From the NCBI RefSeq assembly GCF_000008625.1, contig NC_000918.1, positions 120,001 through 152,000 on the forward strand: DNA of 32,000 nt, written 5' to 3'. How positions within the stretch are numbered: the first letter of the stretch is position 1; each line of letters starts with the position of its first letter. The notes below the pieces were generated by a model. It had not been told where the DNA came from, ran no database searches, and saw nothing but the letters and a program-made list of their open reading frames with translations. Shown piece after piece: positions 228 to 27,545 of the stretch. Origin of the DNA: Aquifex aeolicus VF5. Lineage in GTDB: Bacteria > Aquificota > Aquificia > Aquificales > Aquificaceae. The position numbers and the translations under genes were made by a program.

Positions 228-1451
228 ATGGCAGAATTAAGGGAAACTCTCGAAAGACTCGCATCCTTCAGACCTCAAAATTACTACGTTTCCACCCTTT
301 ATTTGAGATTAATGCCCGAAGACAGGCAGGACAACAAGTACCTGAGGGTTTACAAGGACCTAGTGAAAAAGAAGGAAAAGGATTTAGAAAACCTGAACCT
401 GGATAAAGAGGTTCTTGATTCTATAAGGGGGGACATTAAGAACATTCAGGACTTTTTATCCGATCCTAAAAACCTTTACAACTGCAGGGGGATAGCGATA
501 TTTTCCTGCTCAAAGCTCGGACTGTTTGAGTACGTGAAACTTCCCTACGTTTACAGAAACAGGCTTATGTTCTCACCTGACCCTCTCGTGAGGGAAATAG
601 CGGCGATAGACGAGGAGTTCGGAAGGGTTGCAGTTCTGCTTCTTGACAGAAAACACATAAGGTACTTCCTCATGGACATAACGGGAATAGAAGAAAAGCT
701 GGACTTCTTAGAGCCCATGACCACGAGAGCCCACAGGTTCCACAGCGGAGGAGCGCTTCTCAAAGGTGCGGAGGGAACGTTCCAGTACAGAATGCCCGCG
801 AGGGGTGCAGCGCCAAACGTAGTTCAGCACGGAATGGGTGAGTGGCGTTTCCACATGAGATTAAGGGAAGAGTGGCACAGGATACTCAAACTCGCATCGG
901 ACGCCCTCTTTGAAGAGTGGAAGAGAATACACTTTGACAAGTTAATAATCGGGGGATTTATAGAAGAAGGTCTGAGGGAAATAGAAAACTTCCTGCACCC
1001 ATACGTTAAAGAAAAACTGGTGGGTTACATAGAGATAACGCCCGAAGAGGCAACTCCCCATCAAGTTTGGGAAAAAGCCCTTGACCTCCTTTGGCAAAAG
1101 GACAGGGAGCAGGAAAAGGAAATAATTAAGGAGCTTGAAGAATTAAAGGGCTGGGGACTCGCGGTTAACGGAACTTCGGAAGTTCTTGAAATGCTAGCCA
1201 TAGGAAACGTAAGAACGCTAATTCTTCCAGAGGACTTTGAAAAACCCGGATACCTCTGTCCGCAGAGTCACCTCGCATTCTTAAAGCCCGAGTGCCCCCT
1301 TCCCGAAGAAAAGCCCATTCCCGTAAGCGACGTGGTTGACGAGGCATTAGAAGAGGCCCTGGATCAAAGGGCAACGATAGAGGTTATAATAGATAAGGAA
1401 CTCCAGAAGAAGGTGGACGGACTTGCGGCGTTCTTAAGGTTTAAGCTATGA
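228..1451 (+). CDS. Bacterial eRF1/aRF1/Pelota-like protein (baeRF1-type), with a degenerate GGQ loop (HSGGA)
   Basis: 407-aa ORF with SD AAAGGAGG 6-7 nt upstream of the ATG. The C-terminus GLAVNGTSEVLEMLAIGNVRTLILPED...VDGLAAFLRF matches the eRF1/Pelota domain-3 pattern (..G..EV..AL..GAV..LL...GGIAAILRY). The centre, RFHSGGALLKG...WRFHMRLREEWHR, lines up with the eRF1 M-domain (RGGQSA.RF.RLR.E). Confidence 0.6.
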   Translation: MAELRETLERLASFRPQNYYVSTLYLRLMPEDRQDNKYLRVYKDLVKKKEKDLENLNLDKEVLDSIRGDIKNIQDFLSDPKNLYNCRGIAIFSCSKLGLFEYVKLPYVYRNRLMFSPDPLVREIAAIDEEFGRVAVLLLDRKHIRYFLMDITGIEEKLDFLEPMTTRAHRFHSGGALLKGAEGTFQYRMPARGAAPNVVQHGMGEWRFHMRLREEWHRILKLASDALFEEWKRIHFDKLIIGGFIEEGLREIENFLHPYVKEKLVGYIEITPEEATPHQVWEKALDLLWQKDREQEKEIIKELEELKGWGLAVNGTSEVLEMLAIGNVRTLILPEDFEKPGYLCPQSHLAFLKPECPLPEEKPIPVSDVVDEALEEALDQRATIEVIIDKELQKKVDGLAAFLRFKL

Positions 1452-10543: not shown

Positions 10544-11161
10544 ATGGAAGAGCTCTTGGCAATTGTCAGGAAGGAAAAGTCTTACGATGTGATGAAATCC
10601 TTATCTGAGGCTGAGATACCTTACGTTTCCTGGACTGTGAAGGGGAGGGGGAAGGAGGGGGGACTCAGATATAAAGGTCTTATTAAAGAAAAGGTCCTCA
10701 TGCCTTTCCTGCCAAAAAGGGCTTTCTTGGTCTTTCCCGAGGAGGGCAAAGTAAATGAGGCTGTGAACCTTATCGTTGAAAGTGCTCACACGGGTGCTTA
10801 CGGAGATGGGAAGGTCTTTTTGATAAACCAGGAGGTAGGCGTTATGAAACTTGTAAAGGCTGTTATAAGACCTGAGAAAGTCTACGAAGTAATTAAGGCT
10901 CTCGAGAGCGAAGGATTTAAAGCTATGACCATGTGGGATGTGGTAGGAAGAGGAAAGGAGGGGGGGATCTTGGTGGGAGGGACTCCTTACGACGAGCTCG
11001 CTAAGACGCTCATCATGGTCGCGGTAAAGGATGAGGACGTTGACAAGGTTATACAGAGCATAACGAAAGCTGCGCACACGGGTGCTTACGGAGATGGGAA
11101 GGTGTTCGTTTGCAGCATTTCAAAAGTTTGGACCATAAGGACTAAGGAGGAGGAGCTATGA
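10544..11161 (+). CDS. glnB: Tandem-domain PII (GlnB/GlnK-like) signal-transduction protein: two PII domains in one polypeptide
   Basis: 205 aa. Each half carries RGKEGG (T-loop base) and HTGAYGDGKVF (the PII TG..GDGKIF motif). An internal SD GGAGGT (10831-10836) lies 7 nt upstream of the in-frame ATG at 10844 that opens domain 2. The stop overlaps the porter start (ATGA). Confidence 0.8.
   Translation: MEELLAIVRKEKSYDVMKSLSEAEIPYVSWTVKGRGKEGGLRYKGLIKEKVLMPFLPKRAFLVFPEEGKVNEAVNLIVESAHTGAYGDGKVFLINQEVGVMKLVKAVIRPEKVYEVIKALESEGFKAMTMWDVVGRGKEGGILVGGTPYDELAKTLIMVAVKDEDVDKVIQSITKAAHTGAYGDGKVFVCSISKVWTIRTKEEEL
10787..10815 (+). repeat. Copy 1 of a 29-nt perfect direct repeat inside the tandem PII gene
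   Basis: CACACGGGTGCTTACGGAGATGGGAAGGT is identical to 11075-11103 and encodes HTGAYGDGKV in both domains. Confidence 0.9.
11075..11103 (+). repeat. Copy 2 of the 29-nt perfect direct repeat inside the tandem PII gene
   Basis: Identical to 10787-10815. The copies are offset by 288 nt (96 codons). Confidence 0.9.
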
Positions 11162-12585
11162 ATTTCCTGAAGGAGATAATTGAAGCAATTAAGAAGGGAA
11201 ATCCAAAAGCTCTGTTTGCCAGTTTTATATACTTTGACCATTCATTCAGTATATGGCTACTCTTAGGAGCTCTTGGACCTTTTATAGCTGAGTCCTTCGG
11301 ACTCTCAGGAGCCCAAAAAGGTTTTATGGTTGCAATTCCCGTAATAGCCGCAGCCATATTCAGACTCAACTTCGGACATATGTTCCAGTATATAGACGGG
11401 AAGTACATAGCGATAATGGGCATAATCCTTTCCTCTATCCCTCACCTTTACATGATACTCAGCGGATATCGTGTAACCTACGATGACCTTCTCTGGATGG
11501 GGGTTTTTCTCGGTATCGCAGGAGCAAGCTTTGCGATAGCCCTCCCTATGGCGGGAAGTAACTACCCGAAAGAGGTTCAAGGACTCGTACTTGGACTTGC
11601 CGCGGCGGGAAACATAGGAGCTGTTTTAGACGGTATACTCTTTCCTCCTATTGCAAGGTCCATCGGTTGGGAAAATACCTTCGTTCTTTCGGGAATACTC
11701 CTTCTTATAGCCCTGTTTTTTGTCGTTATCTGGGCGCGGGACCTTACCAAGAAGAACGAAGGGAATAGGTTTTATCCCGTATTTGCATTCTTTGCCACTA
11801 TAGCTTTTATGGTAATACTGGCTCTCGGTTTTCAAAAGGGATGGTTCGGTATAACCGGAAACGCTGGAAAACTCCTCATACCGGTACTTGGTTCTGTATT
11901 TGCTATACTCCTTATGCCTCTTGCCTTTAAAAAGGTGTTCCTGGAAAGGGACACGTGGGTACTTATGCTCGCTTACTCCATAACTTTCGGCGGTTTTGTA
12001 GGAATGTCCTCGTACGTGGCTATGCTCCTTAGGGACATATACGGTATATCCAAAGTGGAGGCAGGAGCTCTTATGTCCCTTTTTGCCTTTACGGGTGCGA
12101 TGATAAGACCTCTGGGGGGACATATCGCGGATAAAATAAGCGGAGCTACAGCACTTCTCTTTTTCCTCGCGGGCATAGCGGGAGTTAACTTCATATTTTC
12201 CCTCGTAACACCGCCTCTGGCGGTAGGTATAGTTTTATTCCTTGCACTCTACTCCTTCTATGGACTTGGAAACGGTGCTGTATTTCAGCTCGTTCCTCAC
12301 AGGTGGCCATATCAAACTGGACTTATGACGGGAATAATCGGAGCTGCCGGAGGTATCGGTGGTTTTTACCTGCCCGTTGTAAACGGAATAGTCTTTGAGT
12401 CCACGGGAGCTTACAACCTGGCGTTTGCACTCTTCGGAGGAATAGCCCTGCTGTGTCTCCTTATAGTTAAGCTTCTTCATGCTCGCTGGATGGAATGGGC
12501 CTACGTTCGCTACGACTACGAAAAAGAAACGTTGGTTGGTATTGATCCTAAGAGTGGAAGGGTAATTATGGAGTTGGCAAGATGA
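11158..12585 (+). CDS. narK: MFS nitrate/nitrite porter (NNP family, NarK/NasA/NrtP type)
   Basis: 475 aa and highly hydrophobic, with about 12 predicted TM segments. It has glycine-rich NNP-like motifs (AGAAGGIGGFYLP, GLGNGAVFQLVP). ATGA overlaps occur at both ends. Confidence 0.8.
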   Translation: MNFLKEIIEAIKKGNPKALFASFIYFDHSFSIWLLLGALGPFIAESFGLSGAQKGFMVAIPVIAAAIFRLNFGHMFQYIDGKYIAIMGIILSSIPHLYMILSGYRVTYDDLLWMGVFLGIAGASFAIALPMAGSNYPKEVQGLVLGLAAAGNIGAVLDGILFPPIARSIGWENTFVLSGILLLIALFFVVIWARDLTKKNEGNRFYPVFAFFATIAFMVILALGFQKGWFGITGNAGKLLIPVLGSVFAILLMPLAFKKVFLERDTWVLMLAYSITFGGFVGMSSYVAMLLRDIYGISKVEAGALMSLFAFTGAMIRPLGGHIADKISGATALLFFLAGIAGVNFIFSLVTPPLAVGIVLFLALYSFYGLGNGAVFQLVPHRWPYQTGLMTGIIGAAGGIGGFYLPVVNGIVFESTGAYNLAFALFGGIALLCLLIVKLLHARWMEWAYVRYDYEKETLVGIDPKSGRVIMELAR

Positions 12586-14584: not shown

Positions 14585-16105
<1,521 letters not shown>

Positions 16106-19213: not shown

Positions 19214-19244
19214 ATTATAAGGAATTTTTAAGTAGTTTTGTAAA
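19214..19244 (-). promoter_or_regulatory. Possible sigma-70-type promoter of rpsO-pnp-dut (TTTACA-N19-TATAAT)
   Basis: On the minus strand, TATAAT is at 19219-19214 and TTTACA at 19244-19239. The 19-nt spacer is longer than optimal. Confidence 0.3.
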
Positions 19245-21315
19245 AAGGAAGCTCGTTTACCTTAATGCCGTAGCCCCAGAATAGTGCATTTGCCACCGCA
19301 GGTGCTATGGGCGGAAGTCCCGGTTCTCCCACACCTCCCATGTGGGCATCGCTGTTCAGTATGTGCACTTCTATTTCTTCGGGAGCCTCATCCATTCTCA
19401 GAATGGGATAAGTGTCGAAGTTGTCGTTTACGGGCTTTCCGTCTCTGAACCTAACCCCTTCCTTTAAAAAGGCACTGAGTCCCATAATTATCGCGCTTTC
19501 CATCTGGGCTCTTATGAGCTCAGGATTTACGGTTACGGGACCTATGTCTATAGTGCAAACTACCTTGTGTACCTTTATCTTGTCCTCTTCGTAAGAGACT
19601 TCCGCAACTTGTGCCACATGACTTCCGAAAGAGTAGTGGTAAGCAAAACCCATCGCTTTTCCGTATTTCGGCTCTTTGCCCCAGCCAGCTTTTTCGGCGG
19701 TGTACTCAACAACTCTCTGTGCTCTCGGGTTTGTTTCCAAGAGTTCTAATCTCATCTCTACCGGGTCTCTGTTTGCGAGTTTTGCAAGTCTATCTATGAA
19801 GGTTTCCAGGGTAAATGCGTTGTGAGTGCTTCCCACGGAGCGCCAGAAGAACACCGGAACGGGAAGGTCTACCTTTACCCACTCCACGTGGACGTTAGGG
19901 ATTTCGTAAAACATGTTGTGAACTCCTTCAACGGCGGCTGGGTCTATAATCACCTTTCTTCCTGCCCATTCAAAAACGGAGGGTACGGCTATTTTAAAGA
20001 AGAGGGCGTTTACTTTACCATTTTCGTCCACACTCCCTGCCATTTTTGTCGCGTTCATGGGTCTGTACCATCCCGACTTTACGTCGTCCTCCCTTGTGTA
20101 TATCAATTTCACGGGTCTTTTTATCGCCTTTGATACTTCAAGGGCTTCCCTTATAAATTCAACGTTTGCCTTTCGGCCAAAACCACCACCGAGGTAAGTG
20201 GTAATCACCTTTATCTTCTCCTCCGGAAGCCCTGTTATTTCCTTCGCCACGTTCAGTGTGGCAGTCTGGGCTTGAGTGGGTGCGAATATTAAACACTCGT
20301 CTTCTTTAACGTGCACGGTACAGTTCATAGGTTCCATGGTGGCGTGGTAGAGGTAAGGAAGGACGTAGGTTTCCTCAATCTTTTTCTTTGAATTCTTGAG
20401 AACTTCTTCCGGCTTCCCGTCTTTTCTGGCAACTATTCCCTTTTCTTGGAGCTTTTTCAAGTAATATTCCTTAAACTTCTCATCGTCCCAGCCATCTATG
20501 GGTGATTCTTCCCACTCAACCTGAATCTTCTCCCTAGCCTCCAGGCAGTCTTCTAAACTTTCACCGCAAATAGCAAGACCCGTTGATATGGGAACGAGTT
20601 TTACGTTATTGACCTCTCCCTTATATCCTTTCAACTTAGCTCCGAAGGGTGCCCTCTCCACAACAGCGTAAACCATACCTTCCATAAAGGTGTCTATTCC
20701 GAACTTCGCCCTCCCGTTTACTTTTTCGGGAACGTCTATTCTGGGGACACTTTTTCCTATGTATATGAACTCCTCTTTTGTCTTTAGTCTCGGATTGGTT
20801 GGTATCCTTTCCCTGAAGGCTTTTTCCGCAAAAGCACCATAAGGGTATTTTTCTCCTGTTTTCAGGTTTTCAATAAATCCCTGCTTAGCCCTTAAATACT
20901 TCTTCTCCACTCCGAGTTCTTTTGATGCTGCGGAAAGGAGCATTTCCTTCATAGACGCTCCTACGAACCTCAAAAAGTCGTACATGTGTCTTACGCTCGT
21001 ACTTCCTCCCGTGAGCTGCACTCCCCACTTTGGATCTACGTACTTTTTACCCGCGGGTGCGGGTTCTACCTTTACCCTTTCCCAAGGAAAGTCAAGTTCA
21101 TCAGCGAGTATTTGGGGAAGTCCCGTGTAAACTCCCTGTCCCATTTCAGATTTATTGACGAGAACGGTCAGGTAGTTGTCCTCCGAGAGTTTTATCCAGA
21201 GTTCCGGAGCGTAATTTGGCAGCACTTCATCTGCTTTCAAAAGCCTGTAGCCGTCAGAGGTGAGCACTACGGCAAGAGCCAGACCGCCTTTTATAAAATC
21301 TCTCCTGCTTATCAT
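19228..21315 (-). CDS. Molybdopterin-binding large subunit of an aldehyde oxidase/xanthine dehydrogenase-family hydroxylase (IorB-like), TAT-exported
   Basis: The likely start is the ATG at 21315 ([17 protein letters not shown], a twin-arginine signal), which overlaps the small-subunit stop as ATGA. The 25 extra N-terminal codons in the ORF track lie inside the small-subunit gene. The body has IorB/CoxL-like segments (GGGFGRK, GVGEPGLPP). Confidence 0.8.
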   Translation of the reverse strand: MISRRDFIKGGLALAVVLTSDGYRLLKADEVLPNYAPELWIKLSEDNYLTVLVNKSEMGQGVYTGLPQILADELDFPWERVKVEPAPAGKKYVDPKWGVQLTGGSTSVRHMYDFLRFVGASMKEMLLSAASKELGVEKKYLRAKQGFIENLKTGEKYPYGAFAEKAFRERIPTNPRLKTKEEFIYIGKSVPRIDVPEKVNGRAKFGIDTFMEGMVYAVVERAPFGAKLKGYKGEVNNVKLVPISTGLAICGESLEDCLEAREKIQVEWEESPIDGWDDEKFKEYYLKKLQEKGIVARKDGKPEEVLKNSKKKIEETYVLPYLYHATMEPMNCTVHVKEDECLIFAPTQAQTATLNVAKEITGLPEEKIKVITTYLGGGFGRKANVEFIREALEVSKAIKRPVKLIYTREDDVKSGWYRPMNATKMAGSVDENGKVNALFFKIAVPSVFEWAGRKVIIDPAAVEGVHNMFYEIPNVHVEWVKVDLPVPVFFWRSVGSTHNAFTLETFIDRLAKLANRDPVEMRLELLETNPRAQRVVEYTAEKAGWGKEPKYGKAMGFAYHYSFGSHVAQVAEVSYEEDKIKVHKVVCTIDIGPVTVNPELIRAQMESAIIMGLSAFLKEGVRFRDGKPVNDNFDTYPILRMDEAPEEIEVHILNSDAHMGGVGEPGLPPIAPAVANALFWGYGIKVNELPFYKTT

Positions 21316-21770
21316 ACTTTTACCTCCCTCATCATCTGGGCAGCCCTCTGAACAGCCCTTACAATCCTCAGGTAAGTCCCGCACCTGCACAGGTGTGAAG
21401 ACATGACACTTACTATTTCCTCTTTTGAAGGGTTCGGATTTTTACTCAGAAGTGCATAGGCTTCCACTATTTGTCCGGGCTGGCAGTATCCGCACTGGGG
21501 AACCTGAAGTTCAATCCATGCCCTTTTAACAGGGTGTTCTTCGGGAATTCCCTCGATGGTTATTATTTCTTTTCATTCCGCTTCCTTGACTGGGTACTGA
21601 CAGCTCCTCACAGGATTTCCGTCTATTAAAACGGTGCAGGAACCGCATATTCCCTTACCGCATCCGAACTTCGTCCCGGTAAGTCTCAACCTCTCCCTTA
21701 TTACCCAGAGGAGAGGCGTATCAGGACTTACATTTACTTCGTACATTTTTCCGTTTACTTTTAAAAGCAT
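21312..21770 (-). CDS. [2Fe-2S] small subunit of the Mo-hydroxylase (IorA/CoxS-like), interrupted by an in-frame TGA at 21573-21575
   Basis: N-terminal half: [12 protein letters not shown]...[22 protein letters not shown] (plant-type 2Fe-2S). After the TGA the same frame continues as [42 protein letters not shown]...[15 protein letters not shown]...KV*, which carries the second 2Fe-2S motif. The likely start is the ATG at 21770, just after GGAGGT; the track start is 21782. Confidence 0.6.
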
Positions 21771-21803
21771 TCCTACCTCCATAAGTTTTAAATTTAATTG
21801 ATA

Positions 21804-23150
21804 ATGATTCTTTTGGTTGAAGATGACGACAACTTAAGGGAACTCCTTAAGAAAAAACTCGAAGAACACTTCGTGGTAGAAACTGCAAAAGACGGAAAGA
21901 CGGCAAGGGAGAAGTTAAGTAAAAATAACTACGACGTTGTTCTCCTCGATATAAGACTTCCCGACGTAGACGGAACAGAACTTTTGAAAGAGTTTTCAAC
22001 GAGCGGGGTTAAGTTCATAGTGATTACCGGCTACGGAGACGTAAAAACGGCCGTCCAATGTGTAAAACTGGGAGCCTACGACTTTATCCAAAAACCTTTT
22101 AACTTTGAACTACTGGAAGTAACTATAAGAAGGGCACTTAAAGAGAAAAGACTGGAGGAGGAAAACAGGACGTTAAAGAGCTTCCTCTTTAAGGAAAAGG
22201 AAGAAGATTACCTGCTGGAAACCAGAAGTCCAAAGTTCAGGGAAGTTTTAGAAATAGCGAGGAGGATTGCAAATACAGACCTTCCCGTGCTCATACGCGG
22301 AGAGACGGGAGTGGGGAAGGAAGTTCTTGCTAAATATATACACACTATTTCAAATAGGAAGGACAAACCTTTCGTGGTAGTGGATTGCACCTCTATACCC
22401 GAGCACCTCTTTGAGAGCGAACTCTTTGGATACGAAAAGGGAGCCTTTACGGGGGCAAATACTAGAAAACTAGGACTTGTTGAACTCGCAAATGGCGGAA
22501 CGCTCTTTTTTGACGAAATAGGAGAAATGCCTCTCTCAATTCAAGCAAAGCTCCTGAGATTTATAGAAACTAGAAAGTTTAGAAGGGTAGGAGGTTTAAA
22601 GGATCTAGAAGTAGATGTCAAAATAATTTGCGCTACGAATAAGGATTTATACGAGAAGTCAAAGAGAGGAGAGTTCAGAGAAGACCTCTATTTTCGTATA
22701 AACACAGTGGAAATCGAAATCCCTCCTCTCAGGGAAAGAAAGGAAGACATACCCCTCCTCGTGGAGTTTTTCCTGAAGAAATATGGGAAGAAGATCAAAA
22801 AAGAAACCTTAAACGAGCTTATAAATTACCCCTGGGAGGGAAACGTAAGGGAACTTAAGAACGTAATAGAGAGGGCATGCATACTCTCAACGGGTGAGTA
22901 TATTGACGAGGCGATATGTCTCAGTAAGAAAAGCGTGAGCTGTGTGGAAAAAATGATGGAAAAACTCCCAAGTCTTGAAGAGCTTGAAGGGATGTACCTC
23001 AAGTTTCTTTACGAAAAACTGGAAGGTGATGTGGACAAAATTGCCGTTATTCTCGGCTGTAGCAGGAGAACCGTCTTCAGAAAGTTAAAGAAGTTAAGAG
23101 AGGGGAAGGTGCACTTCAAAAATGCTTCCCTTTCCGGGGGCACTCCTTAA
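21804..23150 (+). CDS. NtrC-family sigma-54-dependent response regulator (REC + AAA+ + HTH)
   Basis: The receiver domain has [13 protein letters not shown]. The AAA+ domain has [14 protein letters not shown] and FREDLYFRI. The HTH reads [19 protein letters not shown]. Start is the ATG at 21804, or the TTG at 21798 as in the track. No SD is visible. Confidence 0.9.
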
Positions 23151-24113
23151 GTTTATTTTTCCCCCGTAGCTCTTTACAATGTCGTTCACTATGGCAAGTC
23201 CCAGTCCACTCCCTTCCCTCTTGTCTTTCCCGTGATAAAAGGGCAGGAATATCTTGTCCACTTCTTCGGGAGGTATGCCTTTCCCTTCATCCTCTACAAT
23301 TAAAATCAACTCCTCACCTTCTTTTTTCAGGAAAACTCTCACTTTCTTCCCCCTGTCTGATGCCTGAATTGCGTTCAGAACCAAGTTTAGAACCACGTGT
23401 CTTATGTCCGTTTCGTTTCCAAACATGTAAACGCTTTCAAGTTCTTTTTCTATAATTACTCCTCTCTCTTTTGCGTAAACTCTTAAAAGTTCAAGTACGT
23501 CTTCCACAGCCTTTTTAGTATCCACTAAATCCTTGTTGTTATCCTTCCTCGCAAAAAGCAGTAGCTTGTCAACGGTGTTTTTACAGCTAATGAGTGCATT
23601 TTTTATAACCTCTATCTCTTCACAACTTCCGCACTTTTTTTCCAGCTCCTCAAGTGCAAGGCTTATGGTCGCGAGAGGTGTGTTTAGTTGATGGGCAACT
23701 CCGAGGGCAAGGTACCCCACAGAACTGAGCTTTTGAGAAAGGCTGAAGAGGTAAAACTTTTCCTTGTCGTTCTTTATGTTTTTTATGAACTGAATTATTT
23801 TCCTGCCCTCTTCTATTGGGAAAGCACAGATTTCTACGTGAACTTCCTTGTTATCGTGGGTGTAGTGGGTATGAACCACACTGACAGCTCCTTTCCTTTT
23901 CTGGATCTCTTTTAAGGGACAGGGATGACACTCACCGTCGCAGGGCTCGTCCCTCTTGTGAGAAACAAGATAGCAAGGCTTCCCCACGACCTCCTCTTTA
24001 CTTCTGTACCCGTTTTCCTTCACGTAAGACTCGTTGGCGTAAACTATTTTGTAATCTTTGTCTATCACCACAACCTGTTCTTTAAACTTTTCAAATACCT
24101 CAAACTCCCCCAT
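23094..24113 (-). CDS. Soluble sensor histidine kinase: Cys-rich PAS-like domain + HisKA + HATPase_c
   Basis: 339 aa with no hydrophobic TM segment. The PAS-like N-terminus carries C47-x10-C58-x3-C62-x2-C65. The H-box is GVAHQLNTPLATI. The ATPase has N, G1 and G2 boxes (VLNLVLNAIQA, DEGKGI, GSGLGLAIV). The 3' end overlaps the convergent regulator gene by 57 nt. Confidence 0.85.
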   Translation of the reverse strand: MGEFEVFEKFKEQVVVIDKDYKIVYANESYVKENGYRSKEEVVGKPCYLVSHKRDEPCDGECHPCPLKEIQKRKGAVSVVHTHYTHDNKEVHVEICAFPIEEGRKIIQFIKNIKNDKEKFYLFSLSQKLSSVGYLALGVAHQLNTPLATISLALEELEKKCGSCEEIEVIKNALISCKNTVDKLLLFARKDNNKDLVDTKKAVEDVLELLRVYAKERGVIIEKELESVYMFGNETDIRHVVLNLVLNAIQASDRGKKVRVFLKKEGEELILIVEDEGKGIPPEEVDKIFLPFYHGKDKREGSGLGLAIVNDIVKSYGGKINLRSAPGKGSIFEVHLPLS

Positions 24114-24274: not shown

Positions 24275-25585
24275 ATGGGTGTAAATAGGAGAGACGTTTT
24301 TAAACTGGCGGGTTTGGGGGTAGCTCTGGGAGCACTTCAATTACCCTCTATTGCATGTGCTGCGAAAACGTCAAATAGCTTGCTCTCTCCTTCTAAGGGA
24401 AAGAGGATAGTAATCGTGGGAGGAGGATGGGCCGGTGTTACGGCGGCAAAATATATAAGGAAGGAAATCCCCGACGCGGAAGTGGTTCTCATAGAACAGA
24501 GAAAGATGTTTATGTCCTGTCCGATAAGTAACGTATGGCTGGGTGGGCTGGTAGACCTGGAATTCCTTATACACGACTTCTTAACACCCGCTGCAAAGTA
24601 CGGTTACACTTTCATTAACGCAACCGTAACGGATATAGACAGGGATAAAAGAAGGGTATACACGGAAGACGGATACGTTGAGTACGACTACCTCATACTC
24701 GCACCAGGAATAAGGTACAACTACGACGCATGGTTTAACGGAGATAAGGACATGGCAAGGTACGCTCAGACACACTACCCATCCGCTTTCATTCCCGGCT
24801 CTGAGCACTTGAGGCTGAAGAAGAAAGTGGAAAACTTCGAAGAAGGGACGTTTGTACTGGTTGTTCCTCCACCTCCACACAGATGTCCTCCCGCACCTTA
24901 CGAGAGGGCAGCTATGATAGCGCACGTTTTCAGGCAAAACGAAGCCAAGGCAAAATTGATAATCCTTGATCCAAAAGAAAAGATAGCTCCAAAGGGTCCC
25001 GGTTTCAGAATGGCTTACGAGCAGCTGTATCTTGACATAATAGAGTACGTTCCCAACGCAAAGATAAAGGAAGTTGACCCCGTTAAAAAGGTTATAAAGA
25101 CTACCGCAGGGGACTTTAAGTTTGACGACGCTAACCTGAACCCTCCCCATCAAGCGGCGGACATTGCCTGGAAAGCCGGACTCGTCAATCCAAAAACGGG
25201 CTGGTGTGATGTAGACCCTATAACGCTTCAGTCTAAGGTGGACAAGAGGATATTCATCCCCGGAGACGCAAACTCCGTAAAAGGTTTTCCAAAGAGCGGT
25301 GATATGGCGAACAACCAGACCAAGTTTATGCTCGTGAAAGCTATAAAGGCGATGATAGAAGGAAAGGATCCCCTTGAATACGTAAAGGCTCCTACAAACA
25401 CCTGTTACTCTATGGTAAACGGAGACCCGAAAGAAGCGATAGTCATTAACGTTGTTTACGACATAGACAAACAAAAGCGTATGCCCGTTAAGAAGAAGGT
25501 TAACGTAGAAAACGAGCGTTCTCAAAGACTCGCAAGGGCTACATTTGAATGGGCTAAAGCCATGTACAGGGATATGTTCTCGTGA
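24275..25585 (+). CDS. fccB: Flavocytochrome c sulfide dehydrogenase flavoprotein-like (FccB/SoxF-type) FAD oxidoreductase, TAT signal
   Basis: 436 aa. NRRDVFKLAGLGVALGA is a twin-arginine signal and IVIVGGGWAGVTAAKY is the FAD Rossmann motif. The FCSD redox-Cys contexts are MSCPISN, HRCPPAPYERA and NTCYSMVNG. Confidence 0.8.
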   Translation: MGVNRRDVFKLAGLGVALGALQLPSIACAAKTSNSLLSPSKGKRIVIVGGGWAGVTAAKYIRKEIPDAEVVLIEQRKMFMSCPISNVWLGGLVDLEFLIHDFLTPAAKYGYTFINATVTDIDRDKRRVYTEDGYVEYDYLILAPGIRYNYDAWFNGDKDMARYAQTHYPSAFIPGSEHLRLKKKVENFEEGTFVLVVPPPPHRCPPAPYERAAMIAHVFRQNEAKAKLIILDPKEKIAPKGPGFRMAYEQLYLDIIEYVPNAKIKEVDPVKKVIKTTAGDFKFDDANLNPPHQAADIAWKAGLVNPKTGWCDVDPITLQSKVDKRIFIPGDANSVKGFPKSGDMANNQTKFMLVKAIKAMIEGKDPLEYVKAPTNTCYSMVNGDPKEAIVINVVYDIDKQKRMPVKKKVNVENERSQRLARATFEWAKAMYRDMFS

Positions 25586-25594
25586 GGTAAGGAA

Positions 25595-26311
25595 ATGGAC
25601 AGAAGAACCTTCGTAAAAGCCTGCGGGTCAGTTGCCACACTTTCCCTTATCTCTTCCTCCTTTTTTACTCAAACCTTAAGAGCACAAACCAACGAGTTCA
25701 AAAAGTACAAAAAGGCTATTCTGCTGAACAAAGATGGAAATCCGATAAAGCCGGAGGAGATAGAAGTCGGAAAGCAGTACTTGTTTTTCTACCCTTACCG
25801 CTCAACGCCTGCCTTTTTGCTCAACCTCGGAAAGGAAGTAAAGCCTGTGGAAGTAAAGCTCTTAGACGGGAGTTCCTACCTCTGGCCCGGAGGCGTAGGT
25901 CCTCAAAAAAGCATTATCGCTTTCTGTGCTATATGTCCACATCAACTCAGTTATCCGACTCCCGATTATTCTTTCATTAATTACTATCCGCCCGACAAGC
26001 CCTCAAAAGCGGCAAAAAAAGGAAACGTCATTCAGTGCTGTGCCCACATGTCCATCTTTGACCCCGAAAAGGGAGGAGTTGTACTGGACGGTCCCGCGGA
26101 ATACCCCTTACTTACGATAGTCCTTTCATACGAGGATGGAAAACTTTACGCGGTCGGGACGCTCGGTGTGGAGAAGTTTTCAGATTTCTTTGATGCCTAC
26201 CGCTCTGAGCTTAAGAAAATGTACAAATCCTTCAGAAAGGCAAAGAAGAAGGTGGATAAATCTGTTGTTATGAGGGTGGAGGAGTACGTAAATGAAGTCA
26301 TTTACTGTTGA
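25595..26311 (+). CDS. TAT-exported Rieske-type [2Fe-2S] protein
   Basis: 238 aa. MDRRTFVKACGSVA is a twin-arginine signal. The Rieske ligand motifs are C114-P-H116 and C148-C-A-H151, with 31 residues between them, plus an extra Cys111. Confidence 0.7.
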   Translation: MDRRTFVKACGSVATLSLISSSFFTQTLRAQTNEFKKYKKAILLNKDGNPIKPEEIEVGKQYLFFYPYRSTPAFLLNLGKEVKPVEVKLLDGSSYLWPGGVGPQKSIIAFCAICPHQLSYPTPDYSFINYYPPDKPSKAAKKGNVIQCCAHMSIFDPEKGGVVLDGPAEYPLLTIVLSYEDGKLYAVGTLGVEKFSDFFDAYRSELKKMYKSFRKAKKKVDKSVVMRVEEYVNEVIYC

Positions 26312-27545
26312 CAGAAGGAATTTACTGCTTGCAGGTGGAATTGGACTTTTGGGTGTTTACGTTTCAAAGAGTCTTGTCTTTGGAGAGACTAAGGGAAACA
26401 GGGTTGTGGTTCTCGGGGGAGGGTACGGGGGTGTTACAACTGCAAAGTACGTAAAGAAACTTTACCCCGATGCGGAAGTTGTTCTGGTAGAAAAGAACCC
26501 AATGTTCGTGTCCTGTCCTCTGAGCAACCTCTACCTGGTTGGTTTAGTTCCTTACGAACAGCTCTGCTATCCATATAACAACCTAGTGACAAAGTACGGT
26601 GTGAACTTCGTAAACGACGAGGTTATAGGAATTGAGCTTGATAAGAGAGAAGTAATTCTCGGAAACGGAAGACTGAAGTACGACTACCTAGTGATTTCAC
26701 TCGGCATAGAGTACGATTACGAAGAAAATCCGGCGTTGAAGGAAGTTTACTGGAGTTATCCTCCCGCATTCAGACAGGGAAGCGAACACCTTTACCTGAA
26801 GAGGATGCTCGAAGGCTTTGAAGGGGAGAGTATATTAATCAGCGTCCCGAAGATGCCATACCGCTGTCCTTCCGCACCTTACGAGAGAGCCGCACTTATA
26901 CTCTCCTACGCCAAAAAGGAAGGACTTAAAGTTCACCTTTACTTCGTAGATGAGAACGAAAGACCTCCCGTACTTACAAAAGGATTTTTGAAAGCTTACC
27001 AAGACTTTTACAAAGACGACGCCACTTACCTTACCTCAACAAAAGTTCTGGAAGTTGACCCCGTCAAAAAAGTGGCAAGAACCACGAAAGGCGACATAAA
27101 GTTCAGTATGGCAAACTTCATACCCCCCATGAGGGCTCCAAAGCTTCTGGAAAAGGCAGGACTTTTGAAGAAAGGGGAAAAGTGGGTAAAAGTGGATCCC
27201 ATGACTTTTGAAACCTCAGTAAAAAACGTTTTCGTTATAGGGGACAGTGCCTTTACCTATCTGCCAAAGAGCGGTTACGCTGCTCACTCACAGGGTAAAG
27301 TAGTCGCAAAGGTTATAGCTTCAAGACTCAGGAAAAAGCCCTGGGAGGGAGAGCTTATACAGCAAGCGGTTTGCTACGCCATGGTAAACCTCAAGCAGGC
27401 GATAATGATGAACGTGGAGTACAAGTACAACCTAAAGACAAAAGAGATAAAGAAGGAGATTTACGAGGACGATACCTGGAAGGTTTCAACAGCAAAGAGG
27501 TATATAGAGTGGGCGAGGGGACTGTGGAGGGACATGTTTACGTGA
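26292..27545 (+). CDS. fccB: Second FccB/SoxF-type sulfide dehydrogenase flavoprotein paralog, TAT-like signal
   Basis: 417 aa with DRRNLLLAGGIGLLG and VVVLGGGYGGVTTAKY. The same Cys contexts recur: VSCPLSN, YRCPSAPYERA and AVCYAMVN. SD GGTGGAGGAG lies upstream. It overlaps the Rieske gene by 20 nt. Confidence 0.8.
   Translation: MKSFTVDRRNLLLAGGIGLLGVYVSKSLVFGETKGNRVVVLGGGYGGVTTAKYVKKLYPDAEVVLVEKNPMFVSCPLSNLYLVGLVPYEQLCYPYNNLVTKYGVNFVNDEVIGIELDKREVILGNGRLKYDYLVISLGIEYDYEENPALKEVYWSYPPAFRQGSEHLYLKRMLEGFEGESILISVPKMPYRCPSAPYERAALILSYAKKEGLKVHLYFVDENERPPVLTKGFLKAYQDFYKDDATYLTSTKVLEVDPVKKVARTTKGDIKFSMANFIPPMRAPKLLEKAGLLKKGEKWVKVDPMTFETSVKNVFVIGDSAFTYLPKSGYAAHSQGKVVAKVIASRLRKKPWEGELIQQAVCYAMVNLKQAIMMNVEYKYNLKTKEIKKEIYEDDTWKVSTAKRYIEWARGLWRDMFT

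Follow-up and report, generated by a model that had tools for sequence, protein, structure and literature searches.

A probable recent nonsense mutation at codon 66 of the [2Fe-2S] small-subunit gene of an IorA/IorB-like molybdenum hydroxylase in Aquifex aeolicus VF5

In the 32,000-nucleotide stretch of the Aquifex aeolicus VF5 genome analyzed here (contig NC_000918.1, positions 120,001 to 152,000; this whole stretch is called the window, and positions are given in its coordinates), the gene for the small [2Fe-2S] subunit of a molybdenum hydroxylase is interrupted by an in-frame TGA at codon 66 (21573..21575, minus strand, context TGA-A). It is likely that this codon arose from GGA by a true nonsense mutation, specific to the lineage and recent in evolutionary terms, which would leave the enzyme inactive or strongly reduced. 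The original prediction had placed several explanations side by side, and they fare differently: a nonsense mutation fits all of the data, a sequence error is contradicted by independent assemblies, selenocysteine or another programmed recoding finds no signals in its favor, and basal read-through is possible, without any sign of being programmed. The gene is an ordinary nonsense-mutated member of a known family, and the more exotic readings lack support.

On the minus strand, the small-subunit frame reads MLLKVNGK...CQYPVKEAE, TGA, KEIITIEG...QCGYCQPG...CRCGTY...REVKV and, with no stop between, ends at a final TGA (21314-21312); rereading of the sequence thus agrees with the original description of an otherwise open frame split at 21575-21573. 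The start is placed at the ATG at 21770-21768, because the Shine-Dalgarno sequence GGAGGT lies 4 nt 5' of it (21775..21780, minus strand) and because the N termini of homologues fit, although an alternative ATG is present upstream at 21782. The complete subunit would therefore have 152 residues, instead of the 156 first proposed, and the N-terminal fragment 65, the length of 69 applying only to the ATG at 21782. Codons 1-65 (21576..21770, minus strand), which correspond to the 65- or 69-residue gene calls in Logan and RefSeq, encode the Fer2 part with the four cysteines of cluster I, whereas codons 67-152 with the stop codon (21312..21572, minus strand) encode the final β-strand of domain I (EIITIEG) together with all of Fer2_2, as judged from Pfam, the conserved columns of the family, and an AlphaFold2 model of an intact orthologue. 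When the stop is masked, Pfam recognizes Fer2 at residues 4-65 (6.7e-10) and Fer2_2 at residues 71-141 (4.6e-28) of the 152-residue product. The window retains the full set of eight cluster cysteines (C37, C42, C45, C57, C93, C96, C128, and C130), each of them invariant in the family alignment, and the Fer2_2 part carries the C-x2-C...C-x-C ligands of cluster II, so that the second [2Fe-2S] motif downstream of the TGA is complete, as had been noted.

The large-subunit gene, aq_227 (19228..21315, minus strand), adjoins the small-subunit gene on its 3' side, and the final TGA of the latter overlaps the ATG of the former (21315-21313) in an ATGA at 21312-21315, again in accord with the earlier reading. 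Its 695-residue product begins with a twin-arginine translocation (TAT) signal and contains the Pfam domains TAT_signal, MoCoBD_1, and MoCoBD_2, and its translation can go on from a Shine-Dalgarno sequence of its own, GGGAGGT (21328-21322, minus strand). From sequence, the two genes are predicted to encode a two-subunit, TAT-exported molybdenum hydroxylase that is IorA/IorB-like. The small subunit resembles those of the xanthine oxidase family (the IorA or membrane-bound aldehyde dehydrogenase type, with 8gy3_B as the nearest structure and CoxS/CutS, PaoA, and QorS as other members) in having Fer2 followed by Fer2_2, eight cysteine ligands, a length of about 150 residues, and the ATGA overlap with a neighboring molybdopterin-binding large subunit, here K07303/IorB-like and bearing the TAT signal. 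It differs from them in that the single frame for the polypeptide is broken at codon 66, where members of the family have glycine. It should be noted that no NCBIfam equivalog cut-off is reached for the molybdenum hydroxylase of the window.

The reality of the TGA can be judged from data independent of the reference genome, namely Logan de novo assemblies of public sequencing runs that were found by exact look-up of two proteins, the large subunit and the 65-residue fragment. Five runs were matched. The DNA of four of the assemblies (ERR15087784, SRR22575694, SRR22575695, and SRR29904085), which come from at least three accession series, matches the window at 100% identity over 4.8-6.2 kb, with an identical 41-mer around the TGA, and in the fifth run (SRR29904083) the gene is called with the same 65 residues. 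Given the complete identity, all of these runs probably represent strain VF5. A mistake in sequencing or assembling the 1998 reference, with GGA as the true codon, would be in keeping with the single base that separates the TGA from the orthologous codon and with the perfect state of the rest of the gene, but four de novo assemblies have exactly the same sequence at the site, the fifth run gives the same fragment, and the RefSeq re-annotation retains a truncated 69-residue product. An error in the 1998 genome is excluded by the assemblies, and this explanation has next to no probability.

Comparison with relatives indicates which codon was altered. The two nearest orthologues (P0001 and P0002 from loci L086 and L087; 78% amino acid identity) both have GGA, encoding glycine, at the position of the TGA, so that the lesion lies a single G-to-T change from the orthologous sense codon. 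In the aligned column of the 120 most similar proteins, glycine is present in 108, lysine in 4, asparagine in 3, aspartate in 3, and threonine and glutamate in 1 each, with no cysteine; glycine is likewise present at the site in 8gy3_B, an aldehyde dehydrogenase small subunit that is the nearest structure solved. The JGI metagenome collection was scanned in full for TGN followed by the motif K-x-I-x-T-[IV]-E-G-x-P-x-x-H-P-x-K-x-A-W, which is conserved downstream of the site, and there were no matches, that is, no TGA, TGY, or TGG at this position, whereas the same motif without the TGN restriction, which served as a positive control, gave at least 120 matches. Among the 121 metagenomic matches listed, the codon before the motif specifies glycine in 111, arginine in 8, and lysine and aspartate in 1 each. 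The alignment of orthologues that had been proposed as a check therefore places glycine at the site in the nearest relatives and finds neither TGA nor cysteine among homologues. The stop is thus not conserved among orthologues, as it would be in programmed read-through; they have GGA or other sense codons. A profile search of genome contigs with the family alignment returned distant proteobacterial homologues, with no Aquificota among the matches listed.

In the AlphaFold2 model of the intact orthologue P0001 (predicted local distance difference test score of 90.8), residue 66 is in coil between a short helix (H61-64) and a strand (E68-70). The affected residue is accordingly modeled in a surface turn just ahead of the last β-strand of the first ferredoxin-like domain, and the earlier view that the site is non-critical was correct. 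The stop removes the last strand of domain I and all of domain II, and the break is not at a clean domain boundary.

Neither half of the small-subunit gene has signs of decay. Of the columns that are at least 90% conserved among the 120 homologues, 28 lie upstream of the stop and 38 downstream, and A. aeolicus has no deviation in either set, as compared with an average of 0.8 per part for other members of the family, which upholds the earlier statement that both halves are conserved; in Tajima-type relative-rate counts, A. aeolicus-specific changes are not in excess in either half. In the large subunit, 3 of the 66 conserved columns are altered (family mean, 2.45; nearest relatives, 3), and the relative-rate counts are symmetric (e.g. 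58 versus 55 and 44 versus 45). In comparison with the nearest orthologue, the nonsynonymous divergence (dN) is 0.27 for the N-terminal half of the small subunit and 0.11 for its C-terminal half, with a ratio of dN to synonymous divergence (dS) of about 0.07 for the large subunit; because small-subunit dS is saturated or undefined in this comparison, dN/dS is uninformative for the recent period. Neither the conserved columns nor the relative-rate tests thus reveal the relaxed constraint or further lesions downstream of the stop that are associated with pseudogenes. To judge from these sequence comparisons, the lack of decay would leave only two possibilities, a recent event or a function that has been kept, and the mutation is considered recent because the downstream half and the large-subunit gene have not decayed.

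From the orthologues, we infer that the ancestral codon was the glycine codon GGA, which would have been converted to TGA by one G-to-T transversion in this lineage alone. Ribosomes would be expected to stop at codon 66, as at the many other TGA-A terminators of the genome, giving a 65-residue fragment devoid of the last strand of domain I and of the whole second [2Fe-2S] domain; the enzyme would therefore be inactive or nearly so, the holoenzyme being lost or strongly reduced. The sole likely route to a full-length subunit would be ordinary, low-level read-through of UGA by a near-cognate tRNA, which would probably yield a trace; the inserted residue would most likely be tryptophan, the usual insertion, and the variable position would probably tolerate it. 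That ribosomes stop here, that function is lost, and how much read-through there is and which residue it inserts are all what we infer from the gene rather than from its products.

Several points weigh against a recent inactivating mutation. The A. aeolicus genome is compact, and dead genes are not expected to persist in it. Since the assemblies are 100% identical, the mutation could have arisen in culture and not in nature, and no relative of the operon with more than 80% identity is available to share or date the stop. The approximately 2.5 kb free of further lesions is equally to be expected if read-through keeps the operon under selection. Finally, an A directly after the UGA makes up the classical leaky context for suppression by tRNA-Trp in Escherichia coli (Engelberg-Kulka 1981, as cited in PMC9122581).

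These points lead to an alternative that we consider unlikely, in which the gene is a "pseudo-pseudogene" whose UGA-A is read by a near-cognate tRNA, likely tRNA-Trp, at a few percent, so that a small yet sufficient amount of the 152-residue subunit is made and the operon stays functional and under purifying selection. The intact downstream half (no change in 38 conserved columns) and the large subunit without decay are consistent with this, as are the tolerance of homologues for Lys, Asn, Asp, Thr, Glu, and Arg at the site, the strong Shine-Dalgarno sequence that the large subunit has of its own, the description of UGA-A as a leaky context (PMC9122581), and the report that in-frame stops under purifying selection are widespread in bacteria (PMC7918605). 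The gene is also like the published pseudo-pseudogenes (Feng et al. 2022, PMC9122581; Belinky et al. 2021, PMC7918605) which may still be expressed, in that one nonsense substitution interrupts a gene that is conserved and otherwise intact and for which low read-through is plausible, but its stop is known from the sequence of one strain alone. Moreover, as the stop is conserved in no orthologue or homologue, there is no evolutionary signal to set it apart from a recent mutation.

The sequence around the stop also bears on this alternative. Twelve of the 27 genes in the window end with TGA, and 8 of these have TGA-A, the tetranucleotide of the codon 66 site and the commonest terminator context in the window, so that a context that is leaky in E. 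coli is not special here. This frequency arises partly because start/stop overlaps of the ATGA type are very frequent in the window (1448-1451, 2071-2074, 11158-11161, and 12582-12585). Stimulatory RNA structure is also absent: the 70 nt 3' of the UGA fold no better than shuffled sequences (z = -0.46; -1.22 for the first 46 nt), every possible hairpin stem in them is shorter than 6 bp, and a minimum free energy of 0 is predicted at 85 and 95 °C, corresponding to unfolded RNA. The first 16 nt 3' of the UGA are A/U-rich, and searches of Rfam at the gathering threshold and at E values up to 10 gave merely chance snoRNA-like matches. An extension of the leaky-stop idea, also doubtful, is that a leaky UGA at a tolerant turn supplies a little, perhaps condition-dependent, full-length subunit and that translation errors at high temperature thereby set the level of a periplasmic molybdenum hydroxylase. 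If read-through were substantial, the gene would be a handy natural reporter of UGA leakiness in a hyperthermophile.

A quite different proposal, and a very unlikely one, is that the subunit is split, with the 65-residue fragment assembling non-covalently with a separately initiated C-terminal piece. Candidates for re-initiation are the in-frame codons ATA, ATA, ATC, and ATT located 2-9 codons 3' of the TGA, together with an ATG in another frame that overlaps this stop (AATGAAAAG), but the latter would need a +1 slip on A-AAA-A and its frame stops after 16 codons. A canonical start and a properly spaced Shine-Dalgarno sequence are both lacking; as stated in the original prediction, the frame has no ATG, GTG, or TTG from the TGA up to the CGYC motif. 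The first such codon is the GTG at 21467, 3' of the motif. The break severs the last β-strand of domain I and is not a domain boundary, and no homologue is organized in this way.

Selenocysteine insertion, in which SelB and tRNA-Sec would decode the UGA and the small subunit would be a new selenoprotein, deserves consideration because A. aeolicus has the machinery (SelA, SelB, SelD, and tRNA-Sec; PMC1242214, PMC4605307) and at least two UGA-Sec genes, those for FdhA and SelD, and because the frame 3' of the UGA is open and conserved. The window itself contains none of selA, selB, selC, and selD and no tRNA. Like bacterial selenoprotein genes, including those for A. aeolicus FdhA and SelD, the small-subunit gene has an in-frame UGA in a gene for a redox enzyme in a host with the requisite factors; unlike them, it has no selenocysteine insertion sequence (SECIS), no homologues with cysteine or selenocysteine, a non-catalytic glycine at the site, and a UGA that is not conserved. 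A bacterial SECIS has a stem of 6-8 bp with a loop G about 20 nt 3' of the UGA (PMC4605307), and no hairpin of this type is found in an RNA that is predicted to be unfolded at 85-95 °C. Neither cysteine nor TGA occurs at the site in any of the 120 proteins or the 121 metagenome loci listed, in agreement with the absence of matches in the whole-collection TGN scan, and the glycine of the surface turn lies apart from the cluster ligands. In addition, the genome-wide screen of Chaudhuri and Yeates lists, for A. aeolicus, FdhA and SelD alone as UGA-Sec genes and does not include the small-subunit gene among the predicted selenoproteins (PMC1242214). The earlier expectation that a catalytic selenocysteine would not be found is therefore supported, and the chance that the UGA encodes selenocysteine is slight in the extreme.

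An alternative genetic code, with UGA read as glycine (code 25) or tryptophan (code 4), would suit the alignment of the TGA with glycine in about 90% of homologues, but it is ruled out by the use of TGA as an ordinary terminator in the window, where the 12 genes that end in TGA do so at positions that fit full-length Pfam domains and no other long open reading frame contains an internal TGA, leaving it a negligible probability. Selenocysteine, sequencing error, a split subunit, and code reassignment are, even when taken together, distinctly improbable.

The chief value of the recent nonsense mutation proposed here lies in annotation. The RefSeq entry WP_243694496.1, named "2Fe-2S iron-sulfur cluster-binding protein," is the 69-residue N-terminal fragment from the ATG at 21782, and the original GenBank aq_227 (AAC06554.1) is a 720-residue protein that begins with the GTG at 21390 and extends over the orphaned downstream half of the small-subunit gene, within which this GTG is out of frame with the small-subunit frame (21316-21390, minus strand). 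The 695-residue RefSeq large subunit (WP_164930573.1, from the ATG at 21315), to which exact protein look-up also matched O66595, appears to have the correct start because the twin-arginine signal stands exactly at its beginning and a Shine-Dalgarno sequence of its own precedes it. The 69-residue WP_243694496.1 and the 720-residue aq_227 should therefore give way to one disrupted small-subunit gene. A caution for metabolic reconstructions is that a working aq_227 holoenzyme is unlikely in strain VF5, and for anyone expressing the enzyme, a TGA-to-GGA change should restore function. A literature search for aq_227 gave no match, and searches on A. aeolicus pseudogenes and proteomics gave nothing specific to the small-subunit gene.

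The neighbors of the operon in the window include the genes for ribosomal protein S15 (O66594) and polynucleotide phosphorylase (PNPase; aq_221). This position is not conserved: in Aquifex-like genomes that match this PNPase at 90% identity or more, the gene beside rpsO is one for an inositol monophosphatase, and the hydroxylase operon is absent there (L090, 7724-10331), so that these genomes offer no closer orthologue. The nearest orthologous operon (L086, 5001-7543), whose two subunits are 78% and 69% identical to those of A. aeolicus, adjoins genes for an alcohol dehydrogenase and an old yellow enzyme. The A. aeolicus copy (19228-21782) may, on the basis of this gene order, have been relocated or acquired.

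A gene for a sigma-54-dependent response regulator (plus strand, from 21798) runs divergently from the small-subunit gene, and their starts lie only about 40 nt apart; the promoter of the molybdenum hydroxylase operon, if there is one, must sit inside the regulator gene. The response regulator gene and a PAS histidine kinase gene (minus strand) are convergent within 21798-24113, and the 3' ends of their open reading frames overlap by 57 nt (23094-23150). Further along the plus strand, two genes for flavoproteins like flavocytochrome-c sulfide dehydrogenase (24275-25585 and 26292-27545) flank that of a 238-residue protein (25595-26311), which has no Pfam match at E values up to 1e-5 and a sub-threshold NCBIfam similarity to Rieske-type proteins (SoxL2 and the arsenite oxidase small subunit).

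A segment of about 56 nt is present in inverted orientation, with 86% identity, at 15290-15345 and 22393-22448, within two sigma-54 activator genes (14585-16105, minus strand, and 21798-23150, plus strand), and it probably encodes a conserved AAA+ motif of these paralogues. Several of the Logan contigs stop exactly at 22448, and the full contig of 7159 nt would end near the other copy of the segment.

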